43,821 nucleotides of DNA from UHGV virus genome UHGV-0374465; one strand, 5' to 3'. A program made the position numbers and the translations under genes. A model generated the notes under the pieces. It was not told the DNA's origin, did no database searches, and was given only the letters and a program-made list of their open reading frames with translations. This document shows, piece after piece, positions 1-43,821 of this stretch (position 1 is the stretch's first letter; each line of letters starts with the position of its first letter). The DNA comes from a virus.

Positions 1-1880
1 CCTTTTTCAATCTTGAGCCAGTCAATTTGGCATGCGCCTACTGTTGATTGTGGCAATTGATAAATACTTAAGTCATGAGTTACCCCTGCGTTAATATGGG
101 CTTGTGTAACTGTAAAAGATAATGACCATTCGTCTGTTTTACCTTCAACTGGTATCATATTACCAACGCCAAGAGTTCCACCTTTTATATAAACACCAAA
201 AGTTTGTGTAGCTGGTTTAGTAGCTTTCATAGTTACTGTGTAAGTTTGGTTAGCCTGATAATTTTCTATATTGGAAGCTGTATATATTACATAAGCACTT
301 GTTTTAATAGGATAATTAATAGTTTTATTAGCAATATTCTCACCCAAAGGCACCTTACTCAAATAATATGGTGCGTAAAGTAAATTAGGTTGATATGGTG
401 TGGCTGTTGAGCCGTATTCAACTTTAGCGTGTCTCAAACGTAGTTTGCCAGATAGGCTGTTATTAGCGTCTTTATTTTGTAGCATTATAAACCAGCTTTC
501 AGCGTTATCACTCGTAGCAGTAATTTTAACGGTGCCAGTTAGTTTTTGCCATACACCCTTAGCAGTAGTTAATGCATTACGCGTATATAGTTCTGATGTC
601 CAGTTAGGCATTTTAATATATCTTAGGCCTATCTTGCTAGGGTCTCCAGTGAAATCATCTTCTAACATAATCTCTACACTCATGGTATATGTTTTGCCTA
701 TTAACAGGGCTGGTTGACTTTTCGCTTTGAATACTTCTAATTTATGGTTTGGATCAAGCGTGACCACTACCTCGTCACCATCATCCACAACAGATAAAGC
801 ACCAGTACCTTGCGAGAAGCTGTCAGCGTTTATATTAGCCATCAAATTCGGATTCCCACTATAGTCATAGTCACCAAAGTCAGTGCTGTTACTGTATGCT
901 TTTGCTCCCACACTTGGGGCGGTCACTGTCTCACCAAGTGGTGGCAGTAGTGACAACATTGGTTTAGACCAGTGAATAACCGTATCTAATCCCGTGATTC
1001 CATAGTTCACATTGAGCGCTTTTGTGTTAGGGTCTGTAATTTTAATTACCTTACCATATTTTTTAAAGCCTCCTACTTCTTTTGGTATATTGATAAAGTG
1101 CGTACGCAAAACTTTTGATGGATTGACAGACCATTCTTCCAGAACTAAGTTACCTGCCTCTGGTCTAGTGTCATCTTCATCAATAGCTAATACTTTAGCC
1201 TCTATTGAAAAGTTTACATCTTGACCTACTTGTAATTCTGGTAAGTTACGTCTATTCATAGATTGTATAGGTAACCACACGTATTCATCTTGTGCTGAAC
1301 CTCCATATGGGATACCCTCTCTATAATCTACGTAGACGATAGATGAACCATTGTGTTTTTCTTCTGCTAACTTAACCCCTTGATGTAAATACACATCCTT
1401 TTTCTGATATTCAGAATCTAAAATAAGGTTTCTTGATGTAGAATATACATTCGTAAAAGTGTTTGGTTCTAGTTGATGAGCCAATCCGTCAGGCACATCA
1501 AAAACCAGTGTTAGAGGTGTGTATCTTGGATCCGTTGCATCATACTCTTGTACTCCTGAAAAAATAGCATTAAAATATCTATCTGGGAAGATGTCAAAAA
1601 TCAGTTTCTTTGGTTCATCACTGTTAATGAGTAACTTCAATTGGTCTAAAGCGCTTGAAACATCTAATCCTGTATTATCTTTAATAATGAATCCGTCAAT
1701 TGAAATACTATAGTCTCCCAATCGTGTGTTTCTGAAATGTTTTCCATCTGTATTACCTACGGTGAAAAACTCGTTGTCTTTACTCATGAACGGAATATTT
1801 ACTTTGGCAATCTGAAACAAATGATTTGTTTCTTGGCCATTAAACGTGAATGTTCTTAAAAAATCATAGTTACTAGGCAT
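1..1880 (-). CDS. Evolved distal tail protein (Dit), N-terminal 626 aa. The ORF has no stop before position 1 and continues in frame at the window end (42576..43821).
   Basis: ATG at 1880 with a GGAG RBS, immediately downstream of the TMP. The N-terminus MPSNYDFLRTFTFNGQ... resembles the siphovirus Dit belt domain, followed by long beta-rich CBM-like insertions. No stop on the minus strand down to nt 1. Confidence 0.6.
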   Translation of the reverse strand, partial: MPSNYDFLRTFTFNGQETNHLFQIAKVNIPFMSKDNEFFTVGNTDGKHFRNTRLGDYSISIDGFIIKDNTGLDVSSALDQLKLLINSDEPKKLIFDIFPDRYFNAIFSGVQEYDATDPRYTPLTLVFDVPDGLAHQLEPNTFTNVYSTSRNLILDSEYQKKDVYLHQGVKLAEEKHNGSSIVYVDYREGIPYGGSAQDEYVWLPIQSMNRRNLPELQVGQDVNFSIEAKVLAIDEDDTRPEAGNLVLEEWSVNPSKVLRTHFINIPKEVGGFKKYGKVIKITDPNTKALNVNYGITGLDTVIHWSKPMLSLLPPLGETVTAPSVGAKAYSNSTDFGDYDYSGNPNLMANINADSFSQGTGALSVVDDGDEVVVTLDPNHKLEVFKAKSQPALLIGKTYTMSVEIMLEDDFTGDPSKIGLRYIKMPNWTSELYTRNALTTAKGVWQKLTGTVKITATSDNAESWFIMLQNKDANNSLSGKLRLRHAKVEYGSTATPYQPNLLYAPYYLSKVPLGENIANKTINYPIKTSAYVIYTASNIENYQANQTYTVTMKATKPATQTFGVYIKGGTLGVGNMIPVEGKTDEWSLSFTVTQAHINAGVTHDLSIYQLPQSTVGACQIDWLKIEK

Positions 1881-1957
1881 TTTCTCACTCCTCAATTCTT
1901 TATATTCTCATTATAACACAAATAAAGGTGGCTGTGAACCACCTTTATACATAAATA

Positions 1958-4900
1958 TTAAATTAACCCTAGTGCACGATTGGTATTTCTTTGTTCATTT
2001 TTGTTTATCTTCTGCAATTCACGATTTAATGACTTACCATCTATCAGAACATCAGGGTTCTTTTCTAAGAGCTTAGTTAGTATCTCATTTTGTTGTTGCA
2101 TTAGAGAAATGATAAGTTGTAGGTTAGAGTCAGAGTTAGAGTTACTTGTAGTAACCGTTGTTGAAGTACTCTGTTTATTCAACTTCTCATTGGCATATGC
2201 TAATAGTTGCATAGCTCTTGAACGTTTAAGTCCTGAGCCTGTTAATGGAATTATAACCTCTTCTTTGTTGCCTTCTCCAACTCTTGCAATGTGTTCTTTT
2301 GTGACCCTTCCACCGTATTCGTAACCAACTCCACGATAAGCATTTGTTAGTGAGCCATACGTTGCGAGTGCATACTTGATGGAGGCTAGAATGTTACTTA
2401 GTGGGTCATAGATATTACTGTTAAAGCCAGGCATTGCATATGCTCTAAAGGTTGGGTCTATCACCTGCATTAAACCTTTAGATGGTGTACCCTTCATGGC
2501 GTTTGGATCCCACAAGTTAATCGCTTTAGGGTTACCATTTGACTCTGTGCGCATTTGATTTAGTAATGCATTTAAGTTTGCAGCACTGTATTGACCAGTC
2601 ATTTTCAATGCTCTAATTGCTACATTACGCCATCTTTCTACACCACTACCTCCCACACTATCACCTGAGATTTGCGTACTTTGTGGGTCTTTCACACCGT
2701 TTAAATGCACATGATCATAGTGGTCTCCAGCTGGCCATGGTCTCCAATCATTGTGAATACCTGTACCTGATTGTCCTGAACGGTCACGAACCTTGCCATT
2801 TGTGATTACGTAACCAATCTTAGAGGCAAATTTATCAAAGGCATAGTTCGCTGCTTCTGTGTAGCGTGGTGAGCCACCTGTGACACCTGGTAGTGCAATA
2901 TCAATGGCATTGCGTTTACCATGTGAATATTGATCTCCTTCACGATACCCTGAGGTTACCATAAACCCTGGGAATTTCTTCATTACAGACTTAGCTACAT
3001 CTGCTAAATATTTATAGACGCCATTTGTTCCTATTGAGGTATCTAAGTTACCAGATGAGAACAAACCTGTAATCTTTTCCGTCAGGGCGCTTGTTGCTTT
3101 AGACAAAATACCTTTACCTACCTCTAATGGATATTTTGTTAAGCCACCTAATACGTCTAAACCACCTAGTACTTTTCTAGCTAACGCGCCAGGGTCTGAA
3201 ATGAAGTCCCACACGTCACCTACTACATTTTTCAGGGTGTTTCCTACATTACCAGCAATATTTTTCACACTGTCCCACATGTTACCAAAGAAGTTAGTAC
3301 CCTTTTTGTAACGGTACTTAGGGGCTTTTGAACCTTGGAGCTGTGCTGTTTCTTCAGCTGTCAAGACATGCGTTCCTTTTGGTGCGTTTAATACAACGTT
3401 GCGTCCTTTAGGTATGAATGCTCTACCATCTGGTGTGATAACTGTTTCTGCTCCTCGTCCATCATTAACCATCATTGGGCCATTAATTGGGTGACCACCT
3501 GCTGGTGTACCTGTCGCATATTGTGGTACGTCCCATTCTTGTAGAGGTTCTGCGCCTAGTTTTTCAAGTACCCAAGAAGCTCCTTTGATAATACCATTAA
3601 CTGGTTTTCCAATTGCTTTAAGTGCACCGTTGAATACAGATTTAAAGGCATCTGCTACTTTACTTCCTCCTGATTTAAACTTATCAGCTAACTCTCCTGG
3701 TAAGTTTTTGAACCATGTCTTCATGTTAGTTAGCCATGTACTAAACTTAATTGATATGTCAGTAATCCAACCAGTGAACGCCGCTGTTGTTCTAATGTTC
3801 CAGTCTTCAATACTTTTAATCATATCACCTAAGAATGTATTTTTCAAATTGGTTTTGATTGATTCAGATATGCGATCATACATATCTTTAATACCATTCC
3901 AAGCGCCTTCCCAATCTCCTTTGAAAATATCACTCCAAATCTTGATAGTACTAGAGATAATAATCATGGCTGTTTCGATTGTAGCCATGATGAGTCCAAG
4001 TTTTATTTTTAGTGTTTCCCATAGTATAGAAAAGGCTTCAATGATAATATCACTGTTTCGTTTTCCTGATCCACCAAAATTATCTAATGCCCCACTAATA
4101 TATGCTAAATCACCTGAGATCCGTCCTAGCCAGTCACTGAACTGTTGAAACAGTGGTAATAAATCAGGTGCGATTACTTCCTCCCAAATCTGAACTAAGT
4201 CTTTCCATGCTTGAATCATTTTATCCAAGCCGTCTTCAAGCAGTCTTATTATTACCTCTTTCACAGAATCAAAAGCCTTCATAATATTCTCTTTAGCTGT
4301 TTCTAATGCGTCTATGTCTTCTTGACTCATTCCTAACGATCGTAGTAAGGAGTATCCTTGCATTTGGGTGGCTTCATCACCAGTAAACAGTTGCCAGAAA
4401 CCTTTGATATACTGTGTTAATACTTCACCTTTCTCCTTAACCTGTGTGATGAAATCATCTAATGCCCAGATACTTTCCCAACTGAATCCCATCATATTTA
4501 AAATATGTTGGTCGCTTACGGTATCCTTACCAGCCCACATTTTACCAATCACATCTTTTAAATTTGAGATGAAGTTACTAACAAAAAAGAAAAAGTGATC
4601 TAGTGTTTCCATCGCATTAGGTAATGTATTATTAAAGAAATTCTCAATTGGTTCTGTCATCCCACCAGTGAACTCTTGTGCCCAGATGGCGATTGAATTA
4701 ATAGTACCTTTTACACCATTAGTGAAGGCTTCCCATGCTGTAGTATTAGTCATGGTGTTATTCAAATCTTCTGCGCTACCTTTTGTTTCACCAAAGGAAT
4801 CACTAGCACCAGCCATTGCTTTAATGACTTTAAGTGAGTTATCTTCACCTAGAGCAGACCATACTGTACCAGCTCTATTTAGGGCGTCATATCCACCTTC

Positions 4901-6526
4901 CATGTTCGCAAAGTCATTCATCATACCCTTAACTACTTCACCCTGCGTCGCTTTACCATTTTTCCACTCATTGAATAAGTTCCGTGTTGATTCGCTAAAC
5001 ATGTCTGCGTTTTCTTCAAAACGCCCATCTGTTAAGGATATACCCATTTCTTTGATTAAATCGTTTACTTTATCTAAATTATATGCTCCGCCATCTAAAC
5101 CAGCTTCAAGTAAACTAAATGTTTCATCTGCTGTAAATCCCATTTGACCAAACAGTTGAGAATACTCAGCCATATTATCTGCTAGCTCGTTTGATTGATT
5201 CAATCCATTTTGTGCACCAGCAGTCAGTAAGTCAAAAGCTTCTTCAGCACTGATCCCAAAGTTTTCCATCATACGTGACGCACCACGCATGGTCTCATTT
5301 ACATCTGTATCAAATGTTTTACTGAATGAAATAGCGTATTTGGTTAATTGTTTCAATCCTTCTGGCGTAACTTTTTTACCAGCTGTTTGATAGACTTGTG
5401 TAATAGCCTCTTGAGCTTCTTCCAAGCTGTCTACCATTCCGGATTTTACTAATTCATTCGCAAAATTTAGGAATTGTTTAGATTCATCTTTCGTGATTCC
5501 CATTTTACCCTGAAATCTATTTGAGGCTTCCACTACTTCATTGAACGACTCTTTCAATGCATCTGCAGCTTCAATCGCCATATCTAGTGCTTTTGTTGAT
5601 ATGGAAACAGCTAAACCTGTAGCCAATGCACTAAATTCTTTAGTAGCACTTTTGAAACCAGATTCCGCCTTATTACCTTGTTTACCAGCTTCTTCTAGTG
5701 AGTCTCCAGCTTTATCTACTTTATCATCTACATTAGAGGCTTCTCGTTTCAACTCAGATAGTGCGTTAGTCACACCGTCTAAGCGTGTATCTGTATTTTT
5801 TGCTGAACGTTTGAAGTCTTCTAATTTGGCTTGTGCTTGTGCTACTTGTGTTGATGATTCACCAAACTCTTGCGCCATTTTGTTGATTGCTTGTTTTTGT
5901 GATTCAATGGCTTGCTCTGTTAATTCTGCTTGTTTTGTTAGTCCACGTTGTTTTGCTTCAAGCTCTCCAGCTTTATCTCCAGCTTCTTTGAATGCTTTAA
6001 TTTCATCATTCATTGCTTTTTCATTGTCTTTGATTGCTGACGCGTATTTATCCACACCAGCACTAGCTAGAATGTAAGCTTGTTTCGTTGAATCAAGTTC
6101 TTTTGATAGCTTATTGTATTTAACAGTAGCCGTATTTATTTGATTTGTAACGTTAGCCACTTGTTTAGATTCTTTTCCGTAGGTTTGAATATATTCCTCT
6201 CTACGTTTTTCCAACAATTGTATTTTCTTTGCTTGTAATTCTGTGGTATCAATTAACCCTTGCTGTTTGCGTGACAGGTCTTCAGCAGAGGCACCTGCCT
6301 TATCAAAGGTTGACATAGTTGCCTTCATGCTTGACTCTGACTGTTTTAAGGCTTTATTTAATTTGTCTAATGTATTAATGGATTCATCATAGCCATCAAA
6401 ACCAATTCCAAATTTCATATTTCCTATAGGTCTATCTTGTGCCATCAAGTTCACTCCTTTTGGTTGCTTTCTTAATCTATTATAACATAAAAAGAGACAC
6501 TCTAGCGGTGTGCTAAAGTGTCTCAC
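1958..6526 (-). CDS. Tail tape measure protein (1522 aa) with a lytic transglycosylase (SLT) domain and an M23 peptidase domain
   Basis: Large coiled-coil/TM-segmented protein downstream of the chaperone pair. GLMQVIDPTFRAY... is SLT-like. HGKRNAIDIALP...DHYDHVHLNG is an M23 HxxxD...HxH motif. Confidence 0.9.
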   Translation of the reverse strand: MRHFSTPLECLFLCYNRLRKQPKGVNLMAQDRPIGNMKFGIGFDGYDESINTLDKLNKALKQSESSMKATMSTFDKAGASAEDLSRKQQGLIDTTELQAKKIQLLEKRREEYIQTYGKESKQVANVTNQINTATVKYNKLSKELDSTKQAYILASAGVDKYASAIKDNEKAMNDEIKAFKEAGDKAGELEAKQRGLTKQAELTEQAIESQKQAINKMAQEFGESSTQVAQAQAKLEDFKRSAKNTDTRLDGVTNALSELKREASNVDDKVDKAGDSLEEAGKQGNKAESGFKSATKEFSALATGLAVSISTKALDMAIEAADALKESFNEVVEASNRFQGKMGITKDESKQFLNFANELVKSGMVDSLEEAQEAITQVYQTAGKKVTPEGLKQLTKYAISFSKTFDTDVNETMRGASRMMENFGISAEEAFDLLTAGAQNGLNQSNELADNMAEYSQLFGQMGFTADETFSLLEAGLDGGAYNLDKVNDLIKEMGISLTDGRFEENADMFSESTRNLFNEWKNGKATQGEVVKGMMNDFANMEGGYDALNRAGTVWSALGEDNSLKVIKAMAGASDSFGETKGSAEDLNNTMTNTTAWEAFTNGVKGTINSIAIWAQEFTGGMTEPIENFFNNTLPNAMETLDHFFFFVSNFISNLKDVIGKMWAGKDTVSDQHILNMMGFSWESIWALDDFITQVKEKGEVLTQYIKGFWQLFTGDEATQMQGYSLLRSLGMSQEDIDALETAKENIMKAFDSVKEVIIRLLEDGLDKMIQAWKDLVQIWEEVIAPDLLPLFQQFSDWLGRISGDLAYISGALDNFGGSGKRNSDIIIEAFSILWETLKIKLGLIMATIETAMIIISSTIKIWSDIFKGDWEGAWNGIKDMYDRISESIKTNLKNTFLGDMIKSIEDWNIRTTAAFTGWITDISIKFSTWLTNMKTWFKNLPGELADKFKSGGSKVADAFKSVFNGALKAIGKPVNGIIKGASWVLEKLGAEPLQEWDVPQYATGTPAGGHPINGPMMVNDGRGAETVITPDGRAFIPKGRNVVLNAPKGTHVLTAEETAQLQGSKAPKYRYKKGTNFFGNMWDSVKNIAGNVGNTLKNVVGDVWDFISDPGALARKVLGGLDVLGGLTKYPLEVGKGILSKATSALTEKITGLFSSGNLDTSIGTNGVYKYLADVAKSVMKKFPGFMVTSGYREGDQYSHGKRNAIDIALPGVTGGSPRYTEAANYAFDKFASKIGYVITNGKVRDRSGQSGTGIHNDWRPWPAGDHYDHVHLNGVKDPQSTQISGDSVGGSGVERWRNVAIRALKMTGQYSAANLNALLNQMRTESNGNPKAINLWDPNAMKGTPSKGLMQVIDPTFRAYAMPGFNSNIYDPLSNILASIKYALATYGSLTNAYRGVGYEYGGRVTKEHIARVGEGNKEEVIIPLTGSGLKRSRAMQLLAYANEKLNKQSTSTTVTTSNSNSDSNLQLIISLMQQQNEILTKLLEKNPDVLIDGKSLNRELQKINKNEQRNTNRALGLI

Positions 6527-7126
6527 CTTTTACTTTTGCCATATCTTGTGGACTCATAAATGTACCAAAGAAATCTATTGGGTCTTGTAGTTTTTCTTTT
6601 TTAGGTTTATTGTCTTTTGTAAATAACTCCATTAGTAAATTATAGTCAGCGTTGTTAATTTCTGATAGAGACCACGCTCCAGACTCACTGGATAGAAGGT
6701 CAGTGTACAGCTTGTCCATTGCTTCTATGTGTTCCTCCCAGCTTATTTCTGAGAGGTCTTTTTCACCTTTTTTGGCTGTTCAGCCATACCGCCTCCAATA
6801 GCCTCAAATACGCCACCTAACACTGATTCTAGTTTATCAGCGTCAACTCCATCAATAATTGACTCAAATGTTACTTCTGGGTTGTCAAACACATCTGCTA
6901 CTAACATAACCATTGCGTCAATTTGCTCTAGTGGACTCATTTTATCCTCACCAGATTCTACTTTTTCCATGCGTGCTTGGAATTTCATCATTTCACGCAT
7001 AGCACGCACTTTGATTGATTTTTGTTTAAACTCTTTTGTTTTTCCATCAATTTCTAATTTTAATGTAAGCATTTCAATTCCTCCAATTTTTAAATTCTTT
7101 ACTATTTCATTATAACATAGATTCAC
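6513..7126 (-). CDS. Tail assembly chaperone G-T fusion produced by a -1 programmed frameshift
   Basis: The -1 frame after A_AAA_AAG reads directly into ORF 6513..6719 (...KKGEKDLSEISWEEHIEAMDKLYTDLL...). This is the classic G/GT arrangement upstream of a TMP. Confidence 0.6.
6743..7126 (-). CDS. Tail assembly chaperone (gpG-like)
   Basis: 127 aa acidic protein between the major tail protein and the TMP. It ends 24 nt after a slippery heptamer. Confidence 0.7.
   Translation of the reverse strand: MNLCYNEIVKNLKIGGIEMLTLKLEIDGKTKEFKQKSIKVRAMREMMKFQARMEKVESGEDKMSPLEQIDAMVMLVADVFDNPEVTFESIIDGVDADKLESVLGGVFEAIGGGMAEQPKKVKKTSQK
6767..6773 (-). promoter_or_regulatory. Slippery heptamer A_AAA_AAG (programmed -1 ribosomal frameshift site)
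   Basis: Minus strand reads cca aaa aag gtg. The X_XXY_YYZ motif lies in the zero frame near the 3' end of the chaperone gene. Confidence 0.6.
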
Positions 7127-12498: not shown

Positions 12499-14274
12499 TT
12501 AGTAACCGAAACCAAACTCTCCACTATCTAGTAAATCTTGCAATGTTGGAGCGTCATAATCATGATATTGAGCGTCACTCATCGCATTTATTATGGCATC
12601 AAGTGAGTCGATTTTATTTCTGTTTATTTGCTTATCAATTGCAACGCTGTCATTGTACTCTTTAATTATAGCATTGTATGCAGCACGATTCAATAAAGGG
12701 TTATTGGTGTGCATTACTTCACCTCTACGAATTAACTCACGCAAGGCTCTTGTTGGTGAAGATAAATAGTTTATTTTCTGTGGTACTTCAATTAGCTTTT
12801 TGGGATATGTTTTACTTAAATTAATCAAAGCTTTATCCATCATAAATGGATCATAATAGATTCCAATCAGTTGTAAATCATTATAATCTATAAAGTCACG
12901 TATCCAGTCGCACATTTCTTCTGTATCAATCAAGCCATCATCCCGTTGTGATATATGAATAAGGTTCATTGACTCATACTGTCTATAAGGTATTTTATCA
13001 ATTGACTGTTTATGGTCAATACCTCCTACTGATGATACAAAACCATGTGTATCTAGTAATAGCTTGTGCTCTTCTTCTATTGGAATAATCCATGAAACCG
13101 CGGTCATGTCTGATGTTCTAGCTAAGTCAATACCAATGTATACTTTTCTACCTCTAATATCATAATTAGTAGGTGCTTTCACTGAGTCCCATTCTTCTTT
13201 GGTCACAAAGCTATCTTTAGAGGATTGCACCCAGAAATTCATTTCTTTAGTTAACCAGCCAGATAAATCCATTTTACCTTTGTACTCATCTAAAGAGTTG
13301 TTTTTGTGTTCCATCATTGAGTCCCACGCTTCTGGAATTTCAAATAATGGATTGGATTTGATCCAGTTTGTAGGATCATCCACCTCAGCAAGTGAGTCCA
13401 TTTCCCAACAAAGAGCCAAATAAGCGTCACCTTTTACTTCCTCATTTAACAACTTCTCTACAAATGGATATTCTTCTGTATGCATGGGTCCATTTAAATT
13501 TTTTGTAGTGGTTGAAATAATCATGATTAAGCCTTCAACCTGTTGTGCTTGTGAAGATTCTAATACTTGAATAATATCTGATGTTTTAGCTTCTCCATAC
13601 TCATCCAGAATACCGCATAGCACATCTAATCCATCCAATGTTTCTGCGTCACTTGACAACTGTTTCATAGTTGAAAAGTCTGATAACTCTACCCCCTCAC
13701 GTTTTGTGATTTTACTTCGTTTCTTAACCTCTGGTGATACATTACGCAGTGCATATAGATACTTTACTAGCATTCCATATACAATACCTGCTTGATCTTT
13801 TGTGTTTGCTGCTGCCACTACCTGTCTAGAAGCTTTTGGATTTTTACCAAATAGCAGCTCATATAGTGCAATCCCTGCTACGAGAATAGACTTACCATTC
13901 TTACGTGCTAATGAAATATATGCTTTTCTAAAACGTCTGGTATTGTCTTTCTTTTTTCTCCATCCATAAATCAAACCAACGATGAATTTCTGAAATGTTG
14001 CTAACTTCATTGGCTGACGTGATTTGGGGTCTGGTAACATTTCAATAAAGTTCACTACTGGCACAGCTTCTTCTGGTCTATAAATATATGGATACGATTT
14101 ATCTTCAGATTTTTTCATATCCTTTTGATGTCTTTCAATTGCTTGTTTGATTTTTTTACCAACTCTGATTTCAACCTTAATAGGTTTATAATAATCTTCT
14201 TCTACTATATATTTACGTCCTTCAATCCATCCTGTTTCAATAAGATTAATATAGTCTTGTACATAGTCTACCAT
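12499..14274 (-). CDS. terL: Terminase large subunit
   Basis: 591 aa. Walker A at LARKNGKS. Terminase_1-like nuclease C-terminus. Confidence 0.9.
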   Translation of the reverse strand: MVDYVQDYINLIETGWIEGRKYIVEEDYYKPIKVEIRVGKKIKQAIERHQKDMKKSEDKSYPYIYRPEEAVPVVNFIEMLPDPKSRQPMKLATFQKFIVGLIYGWRKKKDNTRRFRKAYISLARKNGKSILVAGIALYELLFGKNPKASRQVVAAANTKDQAGIVYGMLVKYLYALRNVSPEVKKRSKITKREGVELSDFSTMKQLSSDAETLDGLDVLCGILDEYGEAKTSDIIQVLESSQAQQVEGLIMIISTTTKNLNGPMHTEEYPFVEKLLNEEVKGDAYLALCWEMDSLAEVDDPTNWIKSNPLFEIPEAWDSMMEHKNNSLDEYKGKMDLSGWLTKEMNFWVQSSKDSFVTKEEWDSVKAPTNYDIRGRKVYIGIDLARTSDMTAVSWIIPIEEEHKLLLDTHGFVSSVGGIDHKQSIDKIPYRQYESMNLIHISQRDDGLIDTEEMCDWIRDFIDYNDLQLIGIYYDPFMMDKALINLSKTYPKKLIEVPQKINYLSSPTRALRELIRRGEVMHTNNPLLNRAAYNAIIKEYNDSVAIDKQINRNKIDSLDAIINAMSDAQYHDYDAPTLQDLLDSGEFGFGY

Positions 14275-14306
14275 TTATGTATCCTCCTTTTATGCTAGTC
14301 ACTTAT

Positions 14307-14317
14307 ATTATAGCATA
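14307..14317 (-). promoter_or_regulatory. Conserved extended -10 element TATGCTATAAT directly upstream of terL
   Basis: Minus strand reads tttttTATGCTATAATataag, 35 nt before the terL ATG and just after a terminator. Confidence 0.4.
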
Positions 14318-14350
14318 AAAAAATACCCACTAGTTAGCTAGACTAGTGGG
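14317..14350 (-). terminator. Rho-independent terminator (hairpin CCCACTAGT-tagctag-ACTAGTGGG + T-run) at the end of the inter-terS/terL element
   Basis: 9 bp GC-rich stem followed by TATTTTTTT on the minus strand. Confidence 0.65.
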
Positions 14351-14670
14351 TTCATCTACACACCACTAAAGAGTGGGTGAAGCGAGTATCTGCAGGTTTC
14401 CACGCCCTCTGTTATGTGGCTAACTGCTTTGTCGTGCTTGTCGTCAAAGAGGGTCATACTATCACGCATTCGCTAGACACTGTAGCGAGCAGTCGTTTAG
14501 GTGCGCCGTCCACTAGTTAGCTAGACTAGTGGACGGTTAGTATCTGCGAATATACACGCCCTACGTTTAGTGCATATCCACTTTAGTGTGCATGTCGTCA
14601 AGTAGGGCATACTATCACACTATCCGCCAGATACTGTGGCGAGCGGTCGTTTACGTGTGCCGTCCACGAC
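14351..14670 (-). repeat. Two duplicated ~150 bp structured units separated by a 12 bp-stem palindromic hairpin. Candidate ncRNA or packaging-site element.
   Basis: Unit A (14351-14505) and unit B (14537-14670) align with conserved blocks (agtatctgc, catactatcac, gtcgttta, gccgtccac). Two helices covary between copies. No coding capacity. Confidence 0.5.
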
Positions 14671-14789
14671 TGTTCAGTTTCCAACAGCAACCCTTTTTAC
14701 CGTGGAGTGTGGTGAACCACCATTCATTGCCACGTATGGTGCACATAATATCCTTGAATATCAGTGGGTGTCACGTGTACTAGTAAATA

Positions 14790-14818
14790 TATTATAACAC
14801 AAAATCCGACTTCTGTGT
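14790..14818 (-). promoter_or_regulatory. Candidate extended -10 promoter (TGTTATAAT) that could drive transcription of the structured element
   Basis: Minus strand reads aacacagaagtcggattttgTGtTATAAT. The -35 is weak. Confidence 0.3.
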
Positions 14819-14890
14819 TATTTAGTGTATCTAATGTTTACCCCTTATTTGCTATATACATTATACCACATCTATTTAGTTTTGTGTATT

Positions 14891-15355
14891 TTATCCCTCA
14901 AACATTTTTGCGAATGGGTCAAGTACTTCTTTTTCTTTCTCTGCTGGAAGAATAATTTTCATTCTTGAATTGATTGTTAATCCAAGGTCATTGGTTGCCG
15001 TTTTAAGCTCTTTTGAGTATGAGTTCATCGCATTTACCCATGGGTTGGCTTTACCTGTCTCAGGGTCAATAGCGCCCATCTGTGCAACCTTCTCCACTGC
15101 TTCCCCATATAGATAATTGTAGTTACAATATCTAATGACTGTATTAACGTCTAATTCAGAAATAGGTAAGTCACCTACATAAGCGCCAATGCGATCCCAT
15201 TCGTTGAATGCTTGTGGTAATAAACCTGGTGGATAAAAACTGAAGTCTAACTTTTCGTAGTTGTAAAGTACTTCTTCCTCCTTCTCACGCTCTTCTCGTT
15301 GCTGAGTGGTCAAGTTACCACTCTGAGCGTTTAATAATTTTCGTGGTCTTGCCAT
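14891..15355 (-). CDS. terS: Terminase small subunit (P27 family)
   Basis: 154 aa starting MARPRK..., upstream of terL in an HNH-cos type module. Confidence 0.75.
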   Translation of the reverse strand: MARPRKLLNAQSGNLTTQQREEREKEEEVLYNYEKLDFSFYPPGLLPQAFNEWDRIGAYVGDLPISELDVNTVIRYCNYNYLYGEAVEKVAQMGAIDPETGKANPWVNAMNSYSKELKTATNDLGLTINSRMKIILPAEKEKEVLDPFAKMFEG

Positions 15356-15361
15356 TTATTT

Positions 15362-15652
15362 TCACTCCTTAATTTCTTTTATGAATTTAATTACAATTAC
15401 TCTAGAATCATAATCAATAGTTAATTCATATTGTGCAAAATAATTTGTATCTCCTGAAACAACATCAGCTACTACCATATGATGGTGCCCTTCTTCTCCA
15501 AAAGTTTTATAGCTCTCCATAAGGTTTAATACCCCATATTCTTTACCATCAATAATAAACTCAGGAGCATATGTTTTATTTTCAATACGCTTATATTCCA
15601 CGTTTTCAATAGGTATTGATGTATATCCCTCTTCCTGATAATATAAAATCAT
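15362..15652 (-). CDS. Hypothetical protein
   Basis: 96 aa with an RBS, between the 60 aa ORF and terS. Confidence 0.5.
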   Translation of the reverse strand: MILYYQEEGYTSIPIENVEYKRIENKTYAPEFIIDGKEYGVLNLMESYKTFGEEGHHHMVVADVVSGDTNYFAQYELTIDYDSRVIVIKFIKEIKE

Positions 15653-15654
15653 GT

Positions 15655-15837
15655 TTAATCCTCCTTTGGAGCTTCTGTAATTTCAAAGTGACGATTGCGT
15701 CCGCCTAATTTTGTTTTAATATCCTTAAAGTAGCCACGCTTTTTATTATAAAAATCATCTGCTGCAAATTGTGATTTGAATTTGCGTGTCTGCCCAGTTG
15801 ATAAATCTTTTACGTACACTGGTTTTGGTGCAGGCAT
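15655..15837 (-). CDS. Hypothetical basic protein
   Basis: 60 aa, GGGAGG RBS. Confidence 0.45.
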   Translation of the reverse strand: MPAPKPVYVKDLSTGQTRKFKSQFAADDFYNKKRGYFKDIKTKLGGRNRHFEITEAPKED

Positions 15838-15894
15838 TGTATAACCTCCCTTATTTTATTTTTGAGTTAACGGCTAACTCCCTTACATAGCTTT

Positions 15895-15905
15895 ATTATA
15901 TCATA
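15895..15905 (-). promoter_or_regulatory. Extended -10 element TATGATATAAT (variant of the late motif)
   Basis: Minus strand reads tttaTATGATATAATaaagc, upstream of the 60aa-96aa-terS cluster. Confidence 0.35.
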
Positions 15906-16084
15906 TAAAAAGAACCCTGTGTAAAGAAACCAGGGTTCAATCGTGTTTACTAAGGGAACAATCGTATAAGAGAAATAACATACTATATATAGTGTGATTC
16001 CTTTATTTTCAACACAAGAAACCAGGTTTTAATCACGTTTACGAGGGGAAAATGGCATTTTTCAAAGTTCATTTTTAGAATTTC

Positions 16085-16186
16085 GTGCGAAGAAGAGGGG
16101 GCAGCGATTAATTCGTTATAAAAAGGTAGGCGGGTAAAAACATTTTGGGTCTCCCTAAAAATGTTTTTGTCTGCGCGCTTGTTGAT
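16085..16186. other. GC-rich non-coding segment downstream of HNH. Candidate cos/packaging site.
   Basis: gaagaagagggggcagcg...ggtaggcggg...gtctgcgcgcttg, unusually GC-rich for this genome. Adjacent ~35 bp direct repeats at 15923-15957 and 16015-16050. Confidence 0.25.
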
Positions 16187-16579
16187 TTAGCGCTGTTCCC
16201 TACCTCTATTTTTCCAACTGTAGTTATGTTCTTCCTTGTTATGACACTCGTAACAGATTGACTCTAAGTTATTTAAATCAAGTCTATGTTTCCATCCGTT
16301 TGGACTTCTTAATTCTATCTTATGGTGAACCATGTTAGCGTTGGTGTACTTGCCTTGTGCTAAGCATACCTCGCAGAGTGGTTGCTCCATTAGCTTGGCT
16401 TTACGTGCGTTCCTCCATTGGGTTGAATGATAGAAGTTACTGTACTTCTTGTTGTCTTCGTTGTATCTCACGTGCTTATTGTATTGGCTATTGTTGTACC
16501 CTTGATGTGCGTCACAGTAGCGCTCAGGTAGCGTGACATAGTTGCGACATGAAGCCACTGCACACTTACGTTGTGGCAT
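16187..16579 (-). CDS. HNH endonuclease (packaging-associated)
   Basis: C-x4-C ... HHKIELRSPNGW ... CYECHNKEEH. RBS-supported start at 16579 (MPQRKCAVASC). Classic HNH-TerS-TerL arrangement. Confidence 0.85.
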   Translation of the reverse strand: MPQRKCAVASCRNYVTLPERYCDAHQGYNNSQYNKHVRYNEDNKKYSNFYHSTQWRNARKAKLMEQPLCEVCLAQGKYTNANMVHHKIELRSPNGWKHRLDLNNLESICYECHNKEEHNYSWKNRGREQR

Positions 16580-36208: not shown

Positions 36209-36222
36209 GAGGAGGAAATAAA

Positions 36223-36444
36223 ATGATTAAAATTTATACTAAAAACAACTGCATGCCTTGTAAAACGACTAAGAACTGGTTCAAAGGAAAAGGACATACA
36301 TTTACTGAGGTTAACGTTGATGACAACTTAGAAGGGTTAAATGAATTACTTACTATGAATCTAAAAACACTACCTGTGGTGTTTTTAGATGGTGAGTTTG
36401 TGAGTATGGGGTTTGCACCAAACAAATGGGAAGAATTTAAGTAG
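36223..36444 (+). CDS. Glutaredoxin-like protein (NrdH family)
   Basis: 73 aa, CMPC active-site motif, thioredoxin-fold pattern. Confidence 0.7.
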   Translation: MIKIYTKNNCMPCKTTKNWFKGKGHTFTEVNVDDNLEGLNELLTMNLKTLPVVFLDGEFVSMGFAPNKWEEFK

Positions 36445-36456
36445 GGAGGAAGATTA

Positions 36457-37152: not shown

Positions 37153-37164
37153 GCACTTTAAATT
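37128..37164 (+). repeat. Direct repeat copy 1 flanking the lysis cassette (24 bp perfect core TGTGTCTCTCACGAGCATTCTAAG + TTTAAATT)
   Basis: Lies in the last codons of the kinase gene. Copy 2 is at 38919..38955. Confidence 0.7.
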
Positions 37165-37200
37165 AATCAAACAATGTAATTACCCAATTAAATACAAAAG

Positions 37201-37228
37201 AAAACCACTGGATTAACCAGTGGTTTTT
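37201..37228. terminator. Bidirectional rho-independent terminator between the convergent early and late units
   Basis: AAAACCACTGG-atta-ACCAGTGGTTTTT, with an A-tract and a T-tract on either side. Confidence 0.7.
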
Positions 37229-37229
37229 A

Positions 37230-38255
37230 TTATAAACTCAAATAGATTGAGTCAATTCGTACATCGTTTACTGCGCCTTCACCATTAGATTTATTAGCTC
37301 TACGTAAAATCACATCTACTTTTTTACCTTTGAACTGATTCTTATTGACTGTTACATCAAAACCAAGTTCTTGCCCACCTTGATAGCCATATGCTTTCTT
37401 CACATCTGGGCGTTTAATGCCTCGAGATTGTACACGTGTCAATTCTTTATTTGTTCCATGTTGCATGAAGATGACATAAGCATATGTTCCAATTGGGCCT
37501 TGTGGTTTATCAGGAACCAACCAGCCAGCCACACGAATTTGGTCTTTACCATGACCATTAAAGTAGTCTAGTTTACCCCAGGCATTACCTTGATGTTTTG
37601 CTGGGCTTGCAGATACTGCCTTATCATGTTGGCTAGGTGTTGAAGGTGTTACGTTTGCTCCACTTGGAGGTGTTTGTCCACTTGTAGATGGCGCTTTGCC
37701 GTCTGGTTTCAAACTAGGGTTATTATAATACTTAAGAACGTTTTTAATCACATAGTCCTTCATTGCATTAGTTACATTAGCTGGCTGAGCTTGTGTTGAG
37801 TTGAAACCAGTGTGAATAATCAATGAACGTTTAGGACATTGTGTGGCTGAAAACTCATGATGTAAACGTACAGTGTTGCGGTTAACAGGTAATCCATAAT
37901 ATTTCAAATCTTGAGCAATCTGCCAGAATGTGTTTTCTTCTGCTTGCAAGAAGTCTTTTAACGGTGTTTGATCGTTACCACACACTTCGTAACCAATATA
38001 GTTTGTATTACCATCGCTGTTTGCCGTATGCCAAGCAGCATTATAGGTATCTTCAGTACGCCAAATTGTATTCTTATCAATGTAGTAATGAGCAAATCCA
38101 GCAGCTAACTGATTATTGTTCATTGCGGCTAAACGATTAGCTTCTTGTTTAGCTGTTGAGTTACCCCATGTATTATGAAATACTACACCTTTCACTGCGC
38201 CTGGTCTACGTCCAGCCACACCACGTGTAACTGTTTTGTTGATGATTTCCACCAT
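37230..38255 (-). CDS. Endolysin: N-acetylmuramoyl-L-alanine amidase (Amidase_2/PGRP) with a C-terminal cell-wall-binding domain
   Basis: GVVFHNTWGNSTAKQEANRLAAM...CPKRS amidase_2 core. Pro/Ser/Thr linker, then a C-terminal domain. Confidence 0.85.
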   Translation of the reverse strand: MVEIINKTVTRGVAGRRPGAVKGVVFHNTWGNSTAKQEANRLAAMNNNQLAAGFAHYYIDKNTIWRTEDTYNAAWHTANSDGNTNYIGYEVCGNDQTPLKDFLQAEENTFWQIAQDLKYYGLPVNRNTVRLHHEFSATQCPKRSLIIHTGFNSTQAQPANVTNAMKDYVIKNVLKYYNNPSLKPDGKAPSTSGQTPPSGANVTPSTPSQHDKAVSASPAKHQGNAWGKLDYFNGHGKDQIRVAGWLVPDKPQGPIGTYAYVIFMQHGTNKELTRVQSRGIKRPDVKKAYGYQGGQELGFDVTVNKNQFKGKKVDVILRRANKSNGEGAVNDVRIDSIYLSL

Positions 38256-38271
38256 GTTATCACTCTCTTTC

Positions 38272-38553
38272 TTATTTCTTTGGTTCTGTATAGTTTAATG
38301 CTTTTTCACTATCTGTAATACCTTTAGTTGTTGGGTCTGGAATCATGTTTAATGCATTAATTACCGTTAATCCTAAAACATAAGGATTGCTTACCGCTCT
38401 GACTAATACATCCAATAATGTATCAAAGGATGTAATATCCTCAAACTTCAAACCAAAGTAAGCTAGGATAGGTACTGCTAATGCGCCAATAAAACGCAAG
38501 ATAAATGTTAGGTTGTCTTTGCTAAAACGAACTTTCCAGTTGATTTTTTTCAT
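38272..38553 (-). CDS. Holin (phiLC3/Phage_holin_1 family)
   Basis: MKKINWKVRFSKDNLTFILRFIGALAVPILAYFGL... Adjacent to the endolysin. Confidence 0.8.
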   Translation of the reverse strand: MKKINWKVRFSKDNLTFILRFIGALAVPILAYFGLKFEDITSFDTLLDVLVRAVSNPYVLGLTVINALNMIPDPTTKGITDSEKALNYTEPKK

Positions 38554-38565
38554 TCTACATCACTC

Positions 38566-38844
38566 CTATTTCATAAATAAGGATAAACCAATACTAACTA
38601 GTGCTCCAATAACTGCGCCAACAGTTGTACGTGTTAACCATGTATAGCTGTTTTTGAGGTCAGCTAATGCCTCTCTATTCTGCATGGACATGCTGTAAGC
38701 CTTATCTGCTTTCTCAGATTGGCGTTCTAAGCGGCTTCCATACTCTTTTAAGTCAGCTTTAATCTCAGGTATATCATCAAGTTTAACCTCAATTCTTGCT
38801 AACTGTTCCTTTAATGACACAAACTCCTTATCGTTTAAGTTCAT
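38566..38844 (-). CDS. XhlA-like protein (coiled-coil N-terminus, C-terminal TM)
   Basis: 92 aa, upstream of the holin. Confidence 0.6.
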   Translation of the reverse strand: MNLNDKEFVSLKEQLARIEVKLDDIPEIKADLKEYGSRLERQSEKADKAYSMSMQNREALADLKNSYTWLTRTTVGAVIGALVSIGLSLFMK

Positions 38845-41139: not shown

Positions 41140-42564
41140 TCAATAATTTAAAGTTACTTCATATTTGAATTGTGACTCATTATCAGATGTCACAGTAATT
41201 ACCCTACCTGTTTTGGTAAAGTTTGCGTCTAGTGTACCATCTGACTTATACCTGGACCATGTGAAATTACTTTCGTTAAAACTACTAGTAACATCTCTAC
41301 CAGCCCACTTTATTTTGGCACTAAGTGTGATTGTAGTGTTTCCATCTTGTGTTTTACCTCCAATAAACAACGGTGAAGAGGCTTCAATAAATATTTCATA
41401 AGGTATCTTAGAATTCAGGTCATTTTTCAAATCATTTGCCAAATCCAGTAATTCTTTTGATAATCCTGAATCAATAATTTTGAAATCAGACAGTTCAACA
41501 TTAAGAGTGTTTGTTGTATAATGATATTCTATTTTTTGACACCTACTAGATAGAAATAATTCTTCGTATTCATCCACAATGTTTAACGTATCCCCTAGAT
41601 TAATAGGAACATCAATGTTTGCAATATCAACTTCATACTCTGTAATAGGACTACTGTATTTTTTTAATTCTGAAATACCATCATTTAATAAGCTTTGTTT
41701 ATCTGTTGAGGTATAGGTTTTGTATCTAACTATAAAATTAGCTTGTGTATTTGTTCTTGACCAGTGATGAGCATTTTCTAAATCGATCAACATGCCGTCA
41801 TTCTGGCGGAGTATAAACCTTCCATCTGGATCAGTCCATTTATACCCTTTTAAATCTACTGGCTTGTCACTACCTTCTGGAGTACCACCTTTTATAATCA
41901 ATGCGTTGTGTAAATCATAAATATTTTCTTTAGTTATTATTGAGTTTATATCCTTATTAACGTATAATTTAATATTATTATCACGCCCTCGTTTTTTTAA
42001 AATGTTTATTTTACGTTGTATTAAATTATTACCATTAAACTCAAACGAAAATTCTAACTCAGCATTGTCAAACTGCGTTGCTACTGATAATATACGCTCT
42101 AAGCACGTAGCTTCGCCTTCCCACTCTAATGTGCGTGTTAAATTTGGTATTTCATTGATACCAATTACCCAGCCACTGTCATATACAAAACGTTCTATAT
42201 ATGCTTGTATTGTATATGGTTGCGTCGCTTTATACTCACTAACTGTTTCATTTATTAAATCAATAGAGGCACTTTCACATTCAATGGTACGTGTATTCAT
42301 TAATGGATTGTGTTCTACTGACATAATGGTTTGCCAAATATAATTGTTTTGAGGGTCAAGATATAACACATAATCACCTACAGAAACCAGTTTTTTGATT
42401 AGTGCACTATCTGTTTTTTTAAACCCTAATGTTAACGTTAAGTTTCTTGATGCAGTAGACAACACATTAGTGTCTACTGCATCAATCACGCTCACAGGTG
42501 TACTTCCATGTGTACTAACAATTGTTTTAAGTTTAAACTTCCTATCAGTTATATAAAAATCCAT
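41140..42564 (-). CDS. Tail-associated protein / baseplate hub (Tal, prophage-tail endopeptidase-like N-domain)
   Basis: 474 aa directly after the Dit and before the RBP. N-terminus MDFYITDRKFKLKTIVSTHG... is typical of the Tal gp27-like domain. Confidence 0.55.
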   Translation of the reverse strand: MDFYITDRKFKLKTIVSTHGSTPVSVIDAVDTNVLSTASRNLTLTLGFKKTDSALIKKLVSVGDYVLYLDPQNNYIWQTIMSVEHNPLMNTRTIECESASIDLINETVSEYKATQPYTIQAYIERFVYDSGWVIGINEIPNLTRTLEWEGEATCLERILSVATQFDNAELEFSFEFNGNNLIQRKINILKKRGRDNNIKLYVNKDINSIITKENIYDLHNALIIKGGTPEGSDKPVDLKGYKWTDPDGRFILRQNDGMLIDLENAHHWSRTNTQANFIVRYKTYTSTDKQSLLNDGISELKKYSSPITEYEVDIANIDVPINLGDTLNIVDEYEELFLSSRCQKIEYHYTTNTLNVELSDFKIIDSGLSKELLDLANDLKNDLNSKIPYEIFIEASSPLFIGGKTQDGNTTITLSAKIKWAGRDVTSSFNESNFTWSRYKSDGTLDANFTKTGRVITVTSDNESQFKYEVTLNY

Positions 42565-42575
42565 AGTAAATCCTC

Positions 42576-43821
42576 CTACAAATAACTTTCTTCAACAACA
42601 CAAATAACTTCCGCAGGGTTTGCCCAACTTGAAACAATAGGTTGTATAGTTGTTTCTCCTAAATCTAATCTAAATTTCTCCCATTGGTTACCAACCACGT
42701 TAAGCTCATTGTTTATAACCCCATTTACTAGAATTTGTCTAGACTTAACATCTATTTCAATTATATCTCCATCTTGGAAATAATTTCTAATATTTTGAAC
42801 TACAGGGGTACTTATCCAACGGAATTGAGTATCAGTAACAAATGGACGTATATAATTTGAGTTTTCATAACGTTCAGTCCAAACGCCCCAATACTTGATT
42901 GGTGTAGTGTCCTCTTCGTCCAAGTTATAATCAAATACAACTTGTTTGTCTATTACAACAGTATTGTTATTGGTTATACCTTTTACTTGAACAAGTCTCC
43001 ATTTTAAAGATTTCTTATAACGATACATGTTTATTTCAAAGAAATCTTTTGTAAATTCTTTACGTGACACCGTTATTGATTTCAATAGTTTACCTTTATA
43101 CCAGCACTCCATAACCATGTTGGTGTTCGTTGTAGCTGAATCCCTTAGTACAAAACCTAGATAATTTTCAACATTATCATCTGAAATAACATACTCTATA
43201 CGTCCTCTGTGTTTCTGACCTGGTGTATAGAATCTAAAGCGATTGTGTGTGCTAAATTCTCCGTTTCTATTACCTGTTGAATCCAATGGAATAGCGTGTC
43301 TTAATGTAGGGCCATGCCACACATCTTTTGTTTCTCCTGGTCTCCAAACAGGTAGCGCACTATCAACATCTAAGTCCATATTCCAAGACCCTTGTATGAT
43401 ATTTGGAGTATTGTGATTGTTTGACATATATGGATAGCTTGAACCAATAGGGGCATTCACTTCCATATTTGTTGGTAACTGACTACCATAAAAGCTCCAC
43501 GAAACCACTTGTTGACTGACCACGTTTGTTACATTATCCACTTCCTCAGGATTTCCAAACTGTAAAACGGAGCCATCATCTTTAGCTAACGCAACTAGAC
43601 CATTTTCACCTTGTGTTGTGAAGATGAAACGAGGTGTTGTTTTGTAAGTACCATTGTTTTTTACTTTCAGTAAATCTGAAATGCCAGTCGTTGAGGGTTC
43701 ATAAGTAATCACCTGATAGTAGCTTGGGTCATATGTCCAATGATAATCTTTTGGATTATTTGACGGAGCTGGTGCGATTCCTTCATATTTGTAGTATGGA
43801 ATATTAGGAGTTCTAGTATCT
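42576..43821 (-). CDS. Evolved Dit, C-terminal 414 aa. Continuation of the ORF starting at 1880 across the window junction.
   Basis: No stop between 43821 and the track's GTG at 43712. The frame matches the 2-nt remainder at positions 2-1 (gg + a gives GGA). Confidence 0.55.
   Translation of the reverse strand, partial: DTRTPNIPYYKYEGIAPAPSNNPKDYHWTYDPSYYQVITYEPSTTGISDLLKVKNNGTYKTTPRFIFTTQGENGLVALAKDDGSVLQFGNPEEVDNVTNVVSQQVVSWSFYGSQLPTNMEVNAPIGSSYPYMSNNHNTPNIIQGSWNMDLDVDSALPVWRPGETKDVWHGPTLRHAIPLDSTGNRNGEFSTHNRFRFYTPGQKHRGRIEYVISDDNVENYLGFVLRDSATTNTNMVMECWYKGKLLKSITVSRKEFTKDFFEINMYRYKKSLKWRLVQVKGITNNNTVVIDKQVVFDYNLDEEDTTPIKYWGVWTERYENSNYIRPFVTDTQFRWISTPVVQNIRNYFQDGDIIEIDVKSRQILVNGVINNELNVVGNQWEKFRLDLGETTIQPIVSSWANPAEVICVVEESYL

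Follow-up and report, generated by a model that had tools for sequence, protein, structure and literature searches.

A distal tail protein gene split by the record ends of a metagenomic, probably virulent Enterococcus siphophage genome

The viral sequence UHGV-0374465, a stretch of 43,821 nucleotides that was analysed as a whole and is hereafter called the window, is in all likelihood a complete genome, which metagenomic assembly closed into a circle and which was cut open at an arbitrary point within the gene for the distal tail protein (Dit). The phage is most probably a virulent siphophage infecting Enterococcus, from the IME-EFm1/KEN21 (Efemunavirus-like) group. The host is probably E. faecium. 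With the window an established phage group gains a further member; the split in the Dit gene is an artefact of a kind common in assembly, and the protein concerned is of a familiar type. The arbitrary record start divides the phage's largest adhesion protein in two, and without re-circularisation annotation would overlook it or report a pair of fragments. The relevant features are collected in Table 1.

Table 1. Features of the window, with coordinates, strand and basis of assignment.
Feature	Coordinates	Strand	Basis or content
Dit gene, 5' part	1..1880	-	codons 1-626 and GG of codon 627
Tandem CBM22/CBM4-like cassette, aa 321-626	1..920	-	AF2, Foldseek, PHROGs; continues over the junction
141 bp found at both ends of k141_15346, marking the break point of that assembler	370..510	.	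first 141 bases of locus L013 = last 141 of locus L028 = window 370-510
First inserted module, ~aa 146-320, CBM1-like position	921..1445	-	AF2 strands; present in 717-aa EF36P1-type Dits
Dit N-terminal belt (ring-forming) domain, ~aa 1-145	1446..1880	-	PF05709 Sipho_tail
Tape measure protein (TMP), 1495 aa, directly upstream of Dit	1958..6445	-	PHROG 167, 3.7e-210; Pfam PhageMin_Tail and SLT on identical contigs
Packaging module	12499..16579	-	HNH endonuclease 16187-16579, cos, small ORFs, TerS 14891-15355, TerL 12499-14274
Predicted cos site	16078..16126	-	9-nt overhang CGCTGCCCC at 16098-16106, flanks CCTTTTTATAACGAATTAAT and CTCTTCTTCGCACGAAATTC
Lysis cassette	37230..38844	-	XhlA-like 38566-38844, holin 38272-38553, Amidase_2 endolysin 37230-38255
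Virion structural protein / tail fibre-like candidate RBP, 611 aa	39292..41127	-	PHROGs 30133, 19556, 6468 'tail fiber protein; host specificity'
Tal / minor tail protein, 474 aa, directly downstream of Dit	41140..42564	-	PHROGs 9478, 588, 19445 'tail tip protein Tal'; homologues with PF06605 Prophage_tail
Dit gene, 3' part	42576..43821	-	last base of codon 627, codons 628-1041, TAG stop
Putative galectin-like Dit domain, C-terminal part (aa 963-1041), and stop codon	42576..42815	-	weak PF22768; PHROG 202 alignment runs to profile end
J-1-type CBM2 set in putative galectin-like domain, aa 732-962	42816..43508	-	PF21869, Foldseek 5LY8
Cassette end, aa 627-644	43770..43821	-	extent from cassette-less homologues

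No overlap of at least 10 nt exists between the two ends of the window, which means that any such overlap had already been trimmed and that closure needed proof from other contigs. This was found in ENA contig ERZ27264770:k141_15346 of 43,962 bp (43,821 + 141), which carries an exact 141-bp terminal repeat, the signature of a circular assembly by MEGAHIT at k=141. Four loci of this contig cover 43,821 of the 43,821 window positions exactly, and the contig is the same circle as the window, rotated by 369 nt. Neither GC skew nor AT skew changes sign between the two window ends. The sequence-only reading had proposed a complete, circularly permuted genome; the repeat and the full coverage bear out completeness, while 'circularly permuted' describes the sequence record only, as an arbitrary rotation of a circular assembly, and most likely does not hold for the virion, on account of cos.

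Mapped to the window, the two termini of the IME-EFm1 record fall at positions 16097 and 16107. For that phage 9-nt 3' cohesive ends were determined experimentally, and comparison with its published termini gives identity at 20 of 20 positions in each flank and at 8 of 9 in the overhang, where one base differs (PMC4445525). The cos motif recurs, conserved, in 10 related loci that lie on 9 different contigs. In the window the predicted 9-nt overhang reads GGGGCAGCG on the plus strand and CGCTGCCCC on the minus strand. The adjacent packaging genes were identified by Pfam HNH, Terminase_4 and TerL_ATPase/TerL_nuclease on identical contigs and by PHROGs 83 and 9. Since an intact IME-EFm1-type cos stands next to HNH-TerS-TerL, the virion DNA most likely has fixed cohesive ends at cos and is not headful-permuted, the cos itself being assigned by homology to IME-EFm1. 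HK97-type cos phages reportedly have an HNH endonuclease gene beside TerS and TerL (Kala et al. 2014), and the arrangement here, HNH by TerS (Terminase_4) and TerL (TerL_ATPase/TerL_nuclease), is that of HK97-type packaging. The short 3' overhang of the relative IME-EFm1 is another feature of that type, although it is 9 nt here, as predicted, against 10 nt in HK97. The chromosome would most likely be linear, with the terminase and the adjacent HNH protein cutting cos at 16098-16106 to leave 9-nt 3' ends, a cleavage that we infer for this phage, and the assembly circle would stem from concatemers or from cos ends that had annealed or been ligated, with no headful permutation involved.

A virion genome that is truly circularly permuted and terminally redundant (headful, pac-type) would equally produce a circular assembly, and a circle with a k-mer overlap is indeed the typical output of headful phages, yet circular assemblies arise from cos phages too, by way of annealed ends or concatemers. 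The intact copy of an experimentally mapped cos in the window and the HNH endonuclease adjoining TerS/TerL make headful packaging improbable. Seven linear contigs from this or near-identical phages, which start or stop about 120 bp or less from cos (window 15979-16138), also argue against it; since they break 10-120 bp from cos and not exactly at it, they are suggestive only as termini, and we rejected them as exact ones. Fixed cohesive ends are thus preferred, and the best restart point for the record is cos, at ~16.1 kb.

The window is collinear with the genomes of the E. faecium phages IME-EFm1 (genus Efemunavirus), vB_Efm8_KEN21, EF36P1, KEN18/20 and Aramis/dArtagnan, which have the same modules and, at 42-44 kb, a matching size. 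At the nucleotide level most of its genes are 65-97% identical to KEN21 and 69-95% identical to IME-EFm1, and the IME-EFm1/KEN21 group has the same cos region and a Dit of ~1040 aa, which in IME-EFm1 is annotated by RefSeq as 'distal tail protein Dit'. The window phage is identical to no cultured phage: in the Dit cassette region its identity to KEN21 and IME-EFm1 falls to ~75-80%, its TMP is longer than that of KEN21, and it differs from the group by a dNK gene and by a D12 methyltransferase located on the opposite side of DNA polymerase. Its gene content comprises packaging, head, tail, lysis and replication functions, two methyltransferases, dNK and glutaredoxin; Rfam and tRNA scans gave no matches. 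The circle could in principle be a plasmid-prophage or an excised temperate element instead of a virulent phage genome, a reading favoured by circular topology and by the presence of the tandem Dit cassette in the temperate-type phage 4995_1 as well. It is very unlikely, as the called genes include no integrase, repressor, partition or plasmid-replication gene and the nearest relatives are lytic sewage isolates; it was rejected for the lack of integrase and partition genes.

In the window the Dit gene stands between those of TMP and Tal, all on the minus strand. The order TMP, Dit, Tal, RBP, lysis that was first read from the sequence was recovered by PHROG and Pfam as TMP-Dit-Tal-RBP-like-XhlA/holin/endolysin. 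The 611-aa candidate RBP itself gave no Pfam match.

Translation of Dit starts at a minus-strand ATG at 1880 with a GAGGAG ribosome-binding site ahead of it, and codons 1-626 and a leftover gg fill the open frame down to base 1. When the ends are joined computationally, codon 627 becomes GG/A (Gly627), its a being supplied by base 43821, and beyond it the frame stays open until a TAG with its final base at 42576, which gives a product of 1041 aa. Both this join through GGA and the contiguity of the window ends had been claimed before; re-reading agrees, and the re-joined sequence has a single 1041-aa frame with no stop at the junction. The remaining two minus frames at the junction are stop-rich, with longest open runs of ~40-50 codons. 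Because phases match by chance with a probability of 1/3, the joined ORF alone is weak evidence and it is comparative evidence that decides. Two contigs from other samples, ERZ27264781:k141_3427 and ERZ28649517 scaffold_76, pass gap-free through the junction over 23,126 bp, at 100% and 99.45% identity (128 mismatches) respectively; as 100%-identical contigs may share reads or site with the source of the window, only scaffold_76 and the cultured phages are clearly independent. KEN21, IME-EFm1, 4995_1 and VRE9_3 each gave one BLAST HSP over gene nt 1880/1881. At the protein level, a database entry (P0001) is 100% identical to the joined product over 1041 aa, and there are ~100 full-length homologues at 50-91% identity. 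The junction lies in the motif WLKIEKG/DTRTPNIPYYKYEG (slash at the junction), which aligns without gaps in 68 of 71 homologues, the other three being without the whole module. That the in-frame join is a coincidence or a misassembly, with ends from different molecules or sequence missing between them, has a negligible probability: the one-in-three phase match and the lack of terminal overlap within the window leave room for it, but it is refuted by three metagenomic contigs (three samples) and four GenBank phages that cross the junction gap-free, by the identical 1041-aa protein, by the conserved motif and by the exact full-window coverage of k141_15346.

The joined product is indeed an evolved Dit, as the sequence-only reading had it: Pfam Sipho_tail and Dit-like_CBM2 are both present, and PHROG 202 ('distal tail protein Dit') aligns with residues 4-1040 (E 2e-89) and reaches profile position 522/523. 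Its N-terminus had been taken for a Dit belt domain, in agreement with PHROG 202 and with PF05709 Sipho_tail at residues 29-118 (1.6e-10; 41.7 bits, cutoff 24.2). The sole match in a PDB sequence search was weak (SPP1 gp19.1, 2X8K, residues 7-146, E 0.11), so structure prediction was needed. The full-length AF2 model has a pTM of 0.35 and a pLDDT below 50 at residues 1-210, so that for the belt fold we rely on profiles; this model was used for CBM2 only, and aa 321-626 were predicted again separately.

CBM2 is recognised by PF21869 Dit-like_CBM2 at residues 732-962 (4.6e-19; 69 bits, cutoff 27), and by Foldseek it matches 5LY8 (E 7e-14, TM 0.85, rmsd 3.1 A). A galectin-like domain may surround it, to judge by AF2 strands at 678-715 and 980-1036, of only moderate pLDDT, a weak match to the PF22768 SPP1_Dit C-terminal domain (21.6 bits, under the cutoff of 25) and the reach of the PHROG 202 alignment. 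Within the first inserted module a beta-sandwich is predicted at aa 210-311 (AF2 strands, pLDDT 65-79); by analogy with the Efquatrovirus CBM1 (PMC13517437) this module may be a CBM. The separate prediction for aa 321-626 reached a pLDDT of 86, and its best Foldseek match is the CBM22-1/CBM22-2 tandem of 4XUP (6e-7), followed by 5E7T_B, Tuc2009 BppA, and 1GUI, a CBM4. PHROGs 9884/10054/33923 match residues 327-662. The extent of this tandem cassette follows from natural variants: 717-aa homologues of the EF36P1 type are without exactly aa 321-644 (window 43770..43821 and 1..920). Other length variants have ~280 additional aa after residue ~490. BLASTP of Dit against itself detected no internal repeat, so the cassette halves are alike in fold only. 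Structure prediction, the check suggested along with the first reading, returned both 5LY8 for CBM2 and the 4XUP tandem for aa 321-626, and the additional sequence is of CBM type as proposed; the true insertions amount to ~730 aa, the ~900 aa read at first having included the ordinary, here putative, galectin-like domain. PF21869, the Foldseek matches to 5LY8 and 4XUP, and the cassette-plus and cassette-minus variants together define CBM insertion into a Dit scaffold, that is an evolved Dit of the J-1 type.

In the virion, six belt domains would assemble into a ring at the tip of the tail, between TMP and Tal. The remainder of Dit would present four lectin-like beta-sandwich modules, namely the first insertion, the tandem CBM22-like pair and CBM2, so that a hexamer may display up to 24 modules. 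By analogy with J-1 (cited in PMC13517437) and with the SHEF study (PMC11269942), from which sugar binding is deduced, these modules most likely bind cell-wall polysaccharide for host adsorption, and the enterococcal polysaccharide antigen would be the obvious receptor candidate.

In Lactobacillus casei phage J-1 the evolved Dit, whose CBM2 has the structure PDB 5LY8 (Dieterle et al. 2017), is built of a belt and a galectin-like domain with inserted carbohydrate-binding modules; the Dit described here has a belt and inserted modules too, and probably the galectin-like domain. The CBM2 of J-1 resembles the one here, which matches PF21869, at 20% identity. J-1 Dit has two CBMs, whereas the Dit described here has the tandem pair in addition and is ~1.5x longer. 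Among the Dits of Efquatrovirus, here those of phage Abitsa and of IME-EF3, the latter with an additional CBM3, both CBM1 and CBM2 occur, and in some Dits one more CBM is inserted at CBM1's C-terminal loop (PMC13517437); the IME-EF3 'tail component' has 32% identity to the first half of the cassette. Efquatrovirus is a different genus, however, and the extra insertion here is a two-domain cassette, with three domains in ~1330-aa homologues. The window adds another heavily decorated Dit among E. faecium phages.

The cassette is common to enterococcal siphoviruses, myoviruses and podoviruses. In the 138-kb myovirus VRE9_3 a tail protein of 2096 aa shows 88% identity to the stretch for residues 475-633 (479 nt); in 4995_1, a temperate siphophage, a BppU baseplate protein shows 80% nucleotide identity to the cassette in full; and related copies are found in podoviruses (phiSHEF14). 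One tentative reading is that the cassette may serve Enterococcus phages at large as a host-range module and have been exchanged among them recently. Should strain specificity (e.g. for EPA variants) be set by the cassette and not by the downstream fibre-like protein, its exchange could give enterococcal phages of three morphotypes new targets. Such sharing, which has already been described in outline, bears on host-range engineering for phage therapy against VRE. The tandem 'CBM22' domain of SHEF13_41, SHEF14_15 and SHEF16_178 (PMC11269942), which also has 4XUP as its best structural match, is the same module as here, but in the SHEF phages it belongs to podovirus or myovirus tail proteins and here it lies inside a siphovirus Dit. 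Over 95-98% of the cassette, identity is 44% to phiSHEF14 and 40% to phiSHEF13.

After computational re-joining of the window ends, the minus-strand frame opening with an ATG at 1880 (GAGGAG ahead), which reaches base 1 after 626 codons and two bases (GG), continues into the frame entering from 43821, which begins with one base (A) and stays open down to a TAG ending at 42576. The joined ORF has 1041 codons, with the codon of Gly627 at the seam, bearing out the continuous frame and GGA codon proposed by a sequence-only reading. Frame translation of the joined ends showed the remaining two frames to be stop-rich over the seam, and no terminal overlap of at least 10 nt was found between the ends. 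Since the prior for two ends matching in phase is one in three, independent evidence for the join was sought.

A search of 5.8 billion proteins identified about 100 full-length homologues of this Dit (distal tail protein) at 50-91% identity, as well as one protein, P0001, with complete identity across the full 1041 residues. Two ENA contigs, each from a separate sample, encode P0001. Over a 23,126-bp stretch that includes the seam, ERZ27264781:k141_3427 (43,321 bp) shows 100% identity to the circularised window and ERZ28649517 scaffold_76 (39,432 bp) shows 99.45% (128 mismatches, 0 gaps). A third contig, ERZ27264770:k141_15346, measures 43,962 bp, which is 43,821 + 141; four loci from it together match every window position exactly and its first and last 141 bp are the same sequence, window 370-510. 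In MEGAHIT graphs, a circular path is recognised by a terminal repeat as long as the final k-mer. The repeat and exact cover thus identify the window as the k141_15346 circle, rotated by 369 nt and with the repeat removed. Four cultured phages (KEN21, IME-EFm1, 4995_1 and VRE9_3) each give one HSP through gene nt 1880/1881, and the seam motif WLKIEKG/DTRTPNIPYYKYEG (seam at the slash) is ungapped in 68 of the 71 aligned homologues, the other three lacking the whole module. The ends are contiguous and the genome complete, as had been proposed, and a gene split in this way is a normal result of opening a circular contig into a linear record.

The closest relatives, 42-44 kb in size, are lytic siphophages of E. 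faecium; among them, KEN21 (vB_Efm8_KEN21) and IME-EFm1 (genus Efemunavirus) are collinear with the window round the entire circle. Gene content is complete (see table), conforms to the anticipated order TMP (tape measure protein), Dit, Tal, RBP, lysis, and no integrase was found among the window genes. The phage is a further member of a known group and its Dit a known kind of protein.

Features of the window and corresponding positions in related loci (L-numbers)
Feature	Window	Related locus	Remarks
Packaging/head genes			HNH, TerS, TerL, portal, protease, capsid, connectors
Tail genes			Major tail protein, tail assembly chaperone pair, TMP, Dit, Tal (minor tail protein), 611-aa fibre-like protein
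Lysis genes			XhlA, holin, Amidase_2 endolysin
Replication genes			Opposite strand; D5-like primase, SNF2 helicase, Prim-Pol, 759-aa polymerase
Accessory genes			Two DNA methyltransferases, glutaredoxin, dNK
TMP gene centre	3654-5814		No KEN21 match
Phage_TAC_19 protein (109-127 aa) and adjacent 68-aa ORF	6513-7126		Upstream of TMP
TerS-TerL interval	14275-14890		616 bp; no ORF of at least 60 aa on coding strand
Intact cos site	16078-16126		Overhang 16098-16106; matches IME-EFm1 termini inferred from read frequency
Divergent strand and GC/AT skew switch (~17.5 kb)	17400-17800		AT-rich, cumulative GC-skew minimum; candidate early-promoter/origin region
Second DNA methyltransferase, replication module	26849-27589		N6_N4_Mtase, 5.3e-33
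D12 methyltransferase/DNA polymerase region	33138-36208	L003 (KEN21) 34164-37201	
Deoxynucleoside kinase gene	36457-37152		Pfam dNK, 3.4e-39
Convergent strand and GC/AT skew switch (~37.2 kb)	about 37150-37230		Candidate terminator region
Homing endonuclease between TMP and Dit genes		L016, L022 14832-15359	175 aa, NUMOD4/HNH_3; absent from window

For IME-EFm1, 9-nt 3' protruding cohesive ends (GGGTCAGCG) between terminal sequences ATTAATTCGTTATAAAAAGG and CTCTTCTTCGCACGAAATTC were inferred by read-frequency analysis, with wet-lab confirmation (mega-primer PCR, run-off sequencing, adaptor ligation) on sister phage IME-EF4 (PMC4445525). Placed on the window, the IME-EFm1 record has its ends at 16097 and 16107, with exactly 9 nt between them, and the window minus strand here reads CCTTTTTATAACGAATTAAT-CGCTGCCCC-CTCTTCTTCGCACGAAATTC, matching IME-EFm1 at 20/20 positions in both flanks and 8/9 in the overhang. 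The same 49-mer occurs in 10 related loci on 9 distinct contigs. Its position, with the HNH endonuclease gene on one side and TerS/TerL on the other, is the one seen in HK97-type cos phages. In seven linear contigs, which come from different samples and represent identical or near-identical phages, a contig end falls within the surrounding 160 bp (15979-16138), and k141_3427 lacks about 500 bp nearby (roughly 15991-16490, with the upper limit estimated from its size); both would fit reduced coverage at physical ends. Cos match, gene setting and contig breaks together indicate that virion DNA most likely takes the form of one unique linear molecule with cohesive ends; the assembly circle would then derive from end annealing or ligation, or from concatemers. 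The description as circularly permuted thus holds for the record but most likely not for the virion, and cos would be the natural coordinate origin. In relatives the TerS-TerL slot is occupied by a homing endonuclease of HNH_3/NUMOD type (L005) or by a D12 methyltransferase (L016, L021, L022); it resembles either a hot spot for insertions or conserved non-coding sequence.

Pfam places Sipho_tail at Dit residues 29-118, Dit-like_CBM2 at 732-962 (69 bits) and, below threshold, the SPP1_Dit C-terminal domain at 971-1020; PHROG 202 (distal tail protein Dit) covers 4-1040, nearly its full profile, and the hits at 327-662 are to other PHROGs with no assigned function. Module limits, DNA boundaries included, follow from natural length variants: EF36P1-type homologues of 704 and 717 aa lack aa 321-657 and 321-644 respectively, and ~1330-aa homologues carry ~280 additional residues after position ~490. 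The full-length AF2 model is confident at 340-500, 510-630 and 730-960 but not at the N-terminus, its best PDB match being CBM2 of the phage J-1 evolved Dit (5LY8; E 7e-14, TM 0.85, rmsd 3.1 A). Modelled on its own, the segment aa 321-626 (pLDDT 86) best matches the Xyn10C CBM22-1/CBM22-2 tandem (4XUP), followed by the Tuc2009 BppA module and CBM4 domains. The order is therefore belt, first insertion (aa 146-320, which by position would be CBM1-like), tandem CBM22-like cassette (aa 321-644), and a putative galectin-like domain interrupted by CBM2, the window breaking in the last strand of the cassette's second domain. The joined protein is thus a Dit with CBM-type insertions, as the sequence-only reading proposed, although the insertions total about 730 aa rather than ~900.

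Evolved Dits were defined in Lactobacillus phage J-1 and are known from Enterococcus Efquatrovirus, some of them having a third CBM inserted where CBM1 ends (PMC13517437). The cassette corresponds to the module described as 'CBM22' in SHEF13, SHEF14 and SHEF16 (PMC11269942), with 44% identity to phiSHEF14 and 40% to phiSHEF13. It occurs in 113 phage records, nearly all Enterococcus, in Dits, a BppU baseplate protein (4995_1), a GDPD-domain protein (Planchet), podovirus tail proteins and, in the myovirus VRE9_3, a tail protein of 2096 aa (88% identical at nucleotide level over 479 nt). This spread across varied tail proteins and phages marks it as a mobile, putatively adhesive module, and its exchange between morphotypes is of modest remaining interest.

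TMP has 1495 aa, versus 1271-1272 aa in KEN21 and L012, implying a different tail length; in IME-EFm1 it is annotated as two CDS. GIY-YIG endonucleases are scattered through the tail gene region of other relatives. The Phage_TAC_19 protein and adjacent ORF look like the usual tail-assembly-chaperone pair, often joined by programmed frameshift. Relative to the DNA polymerase gene, the D12 adenine methyltransferase gene is downstream in the window but upstream in KEN21 and L033, a local module transposition. KEN21 and IME-EFm1 show no DNA match to the dNK gene, but several metagenomic relatives have one. Where the window has N6_N4_Mtase, an HNH_3 endonuclease is found in relatives such as L033.
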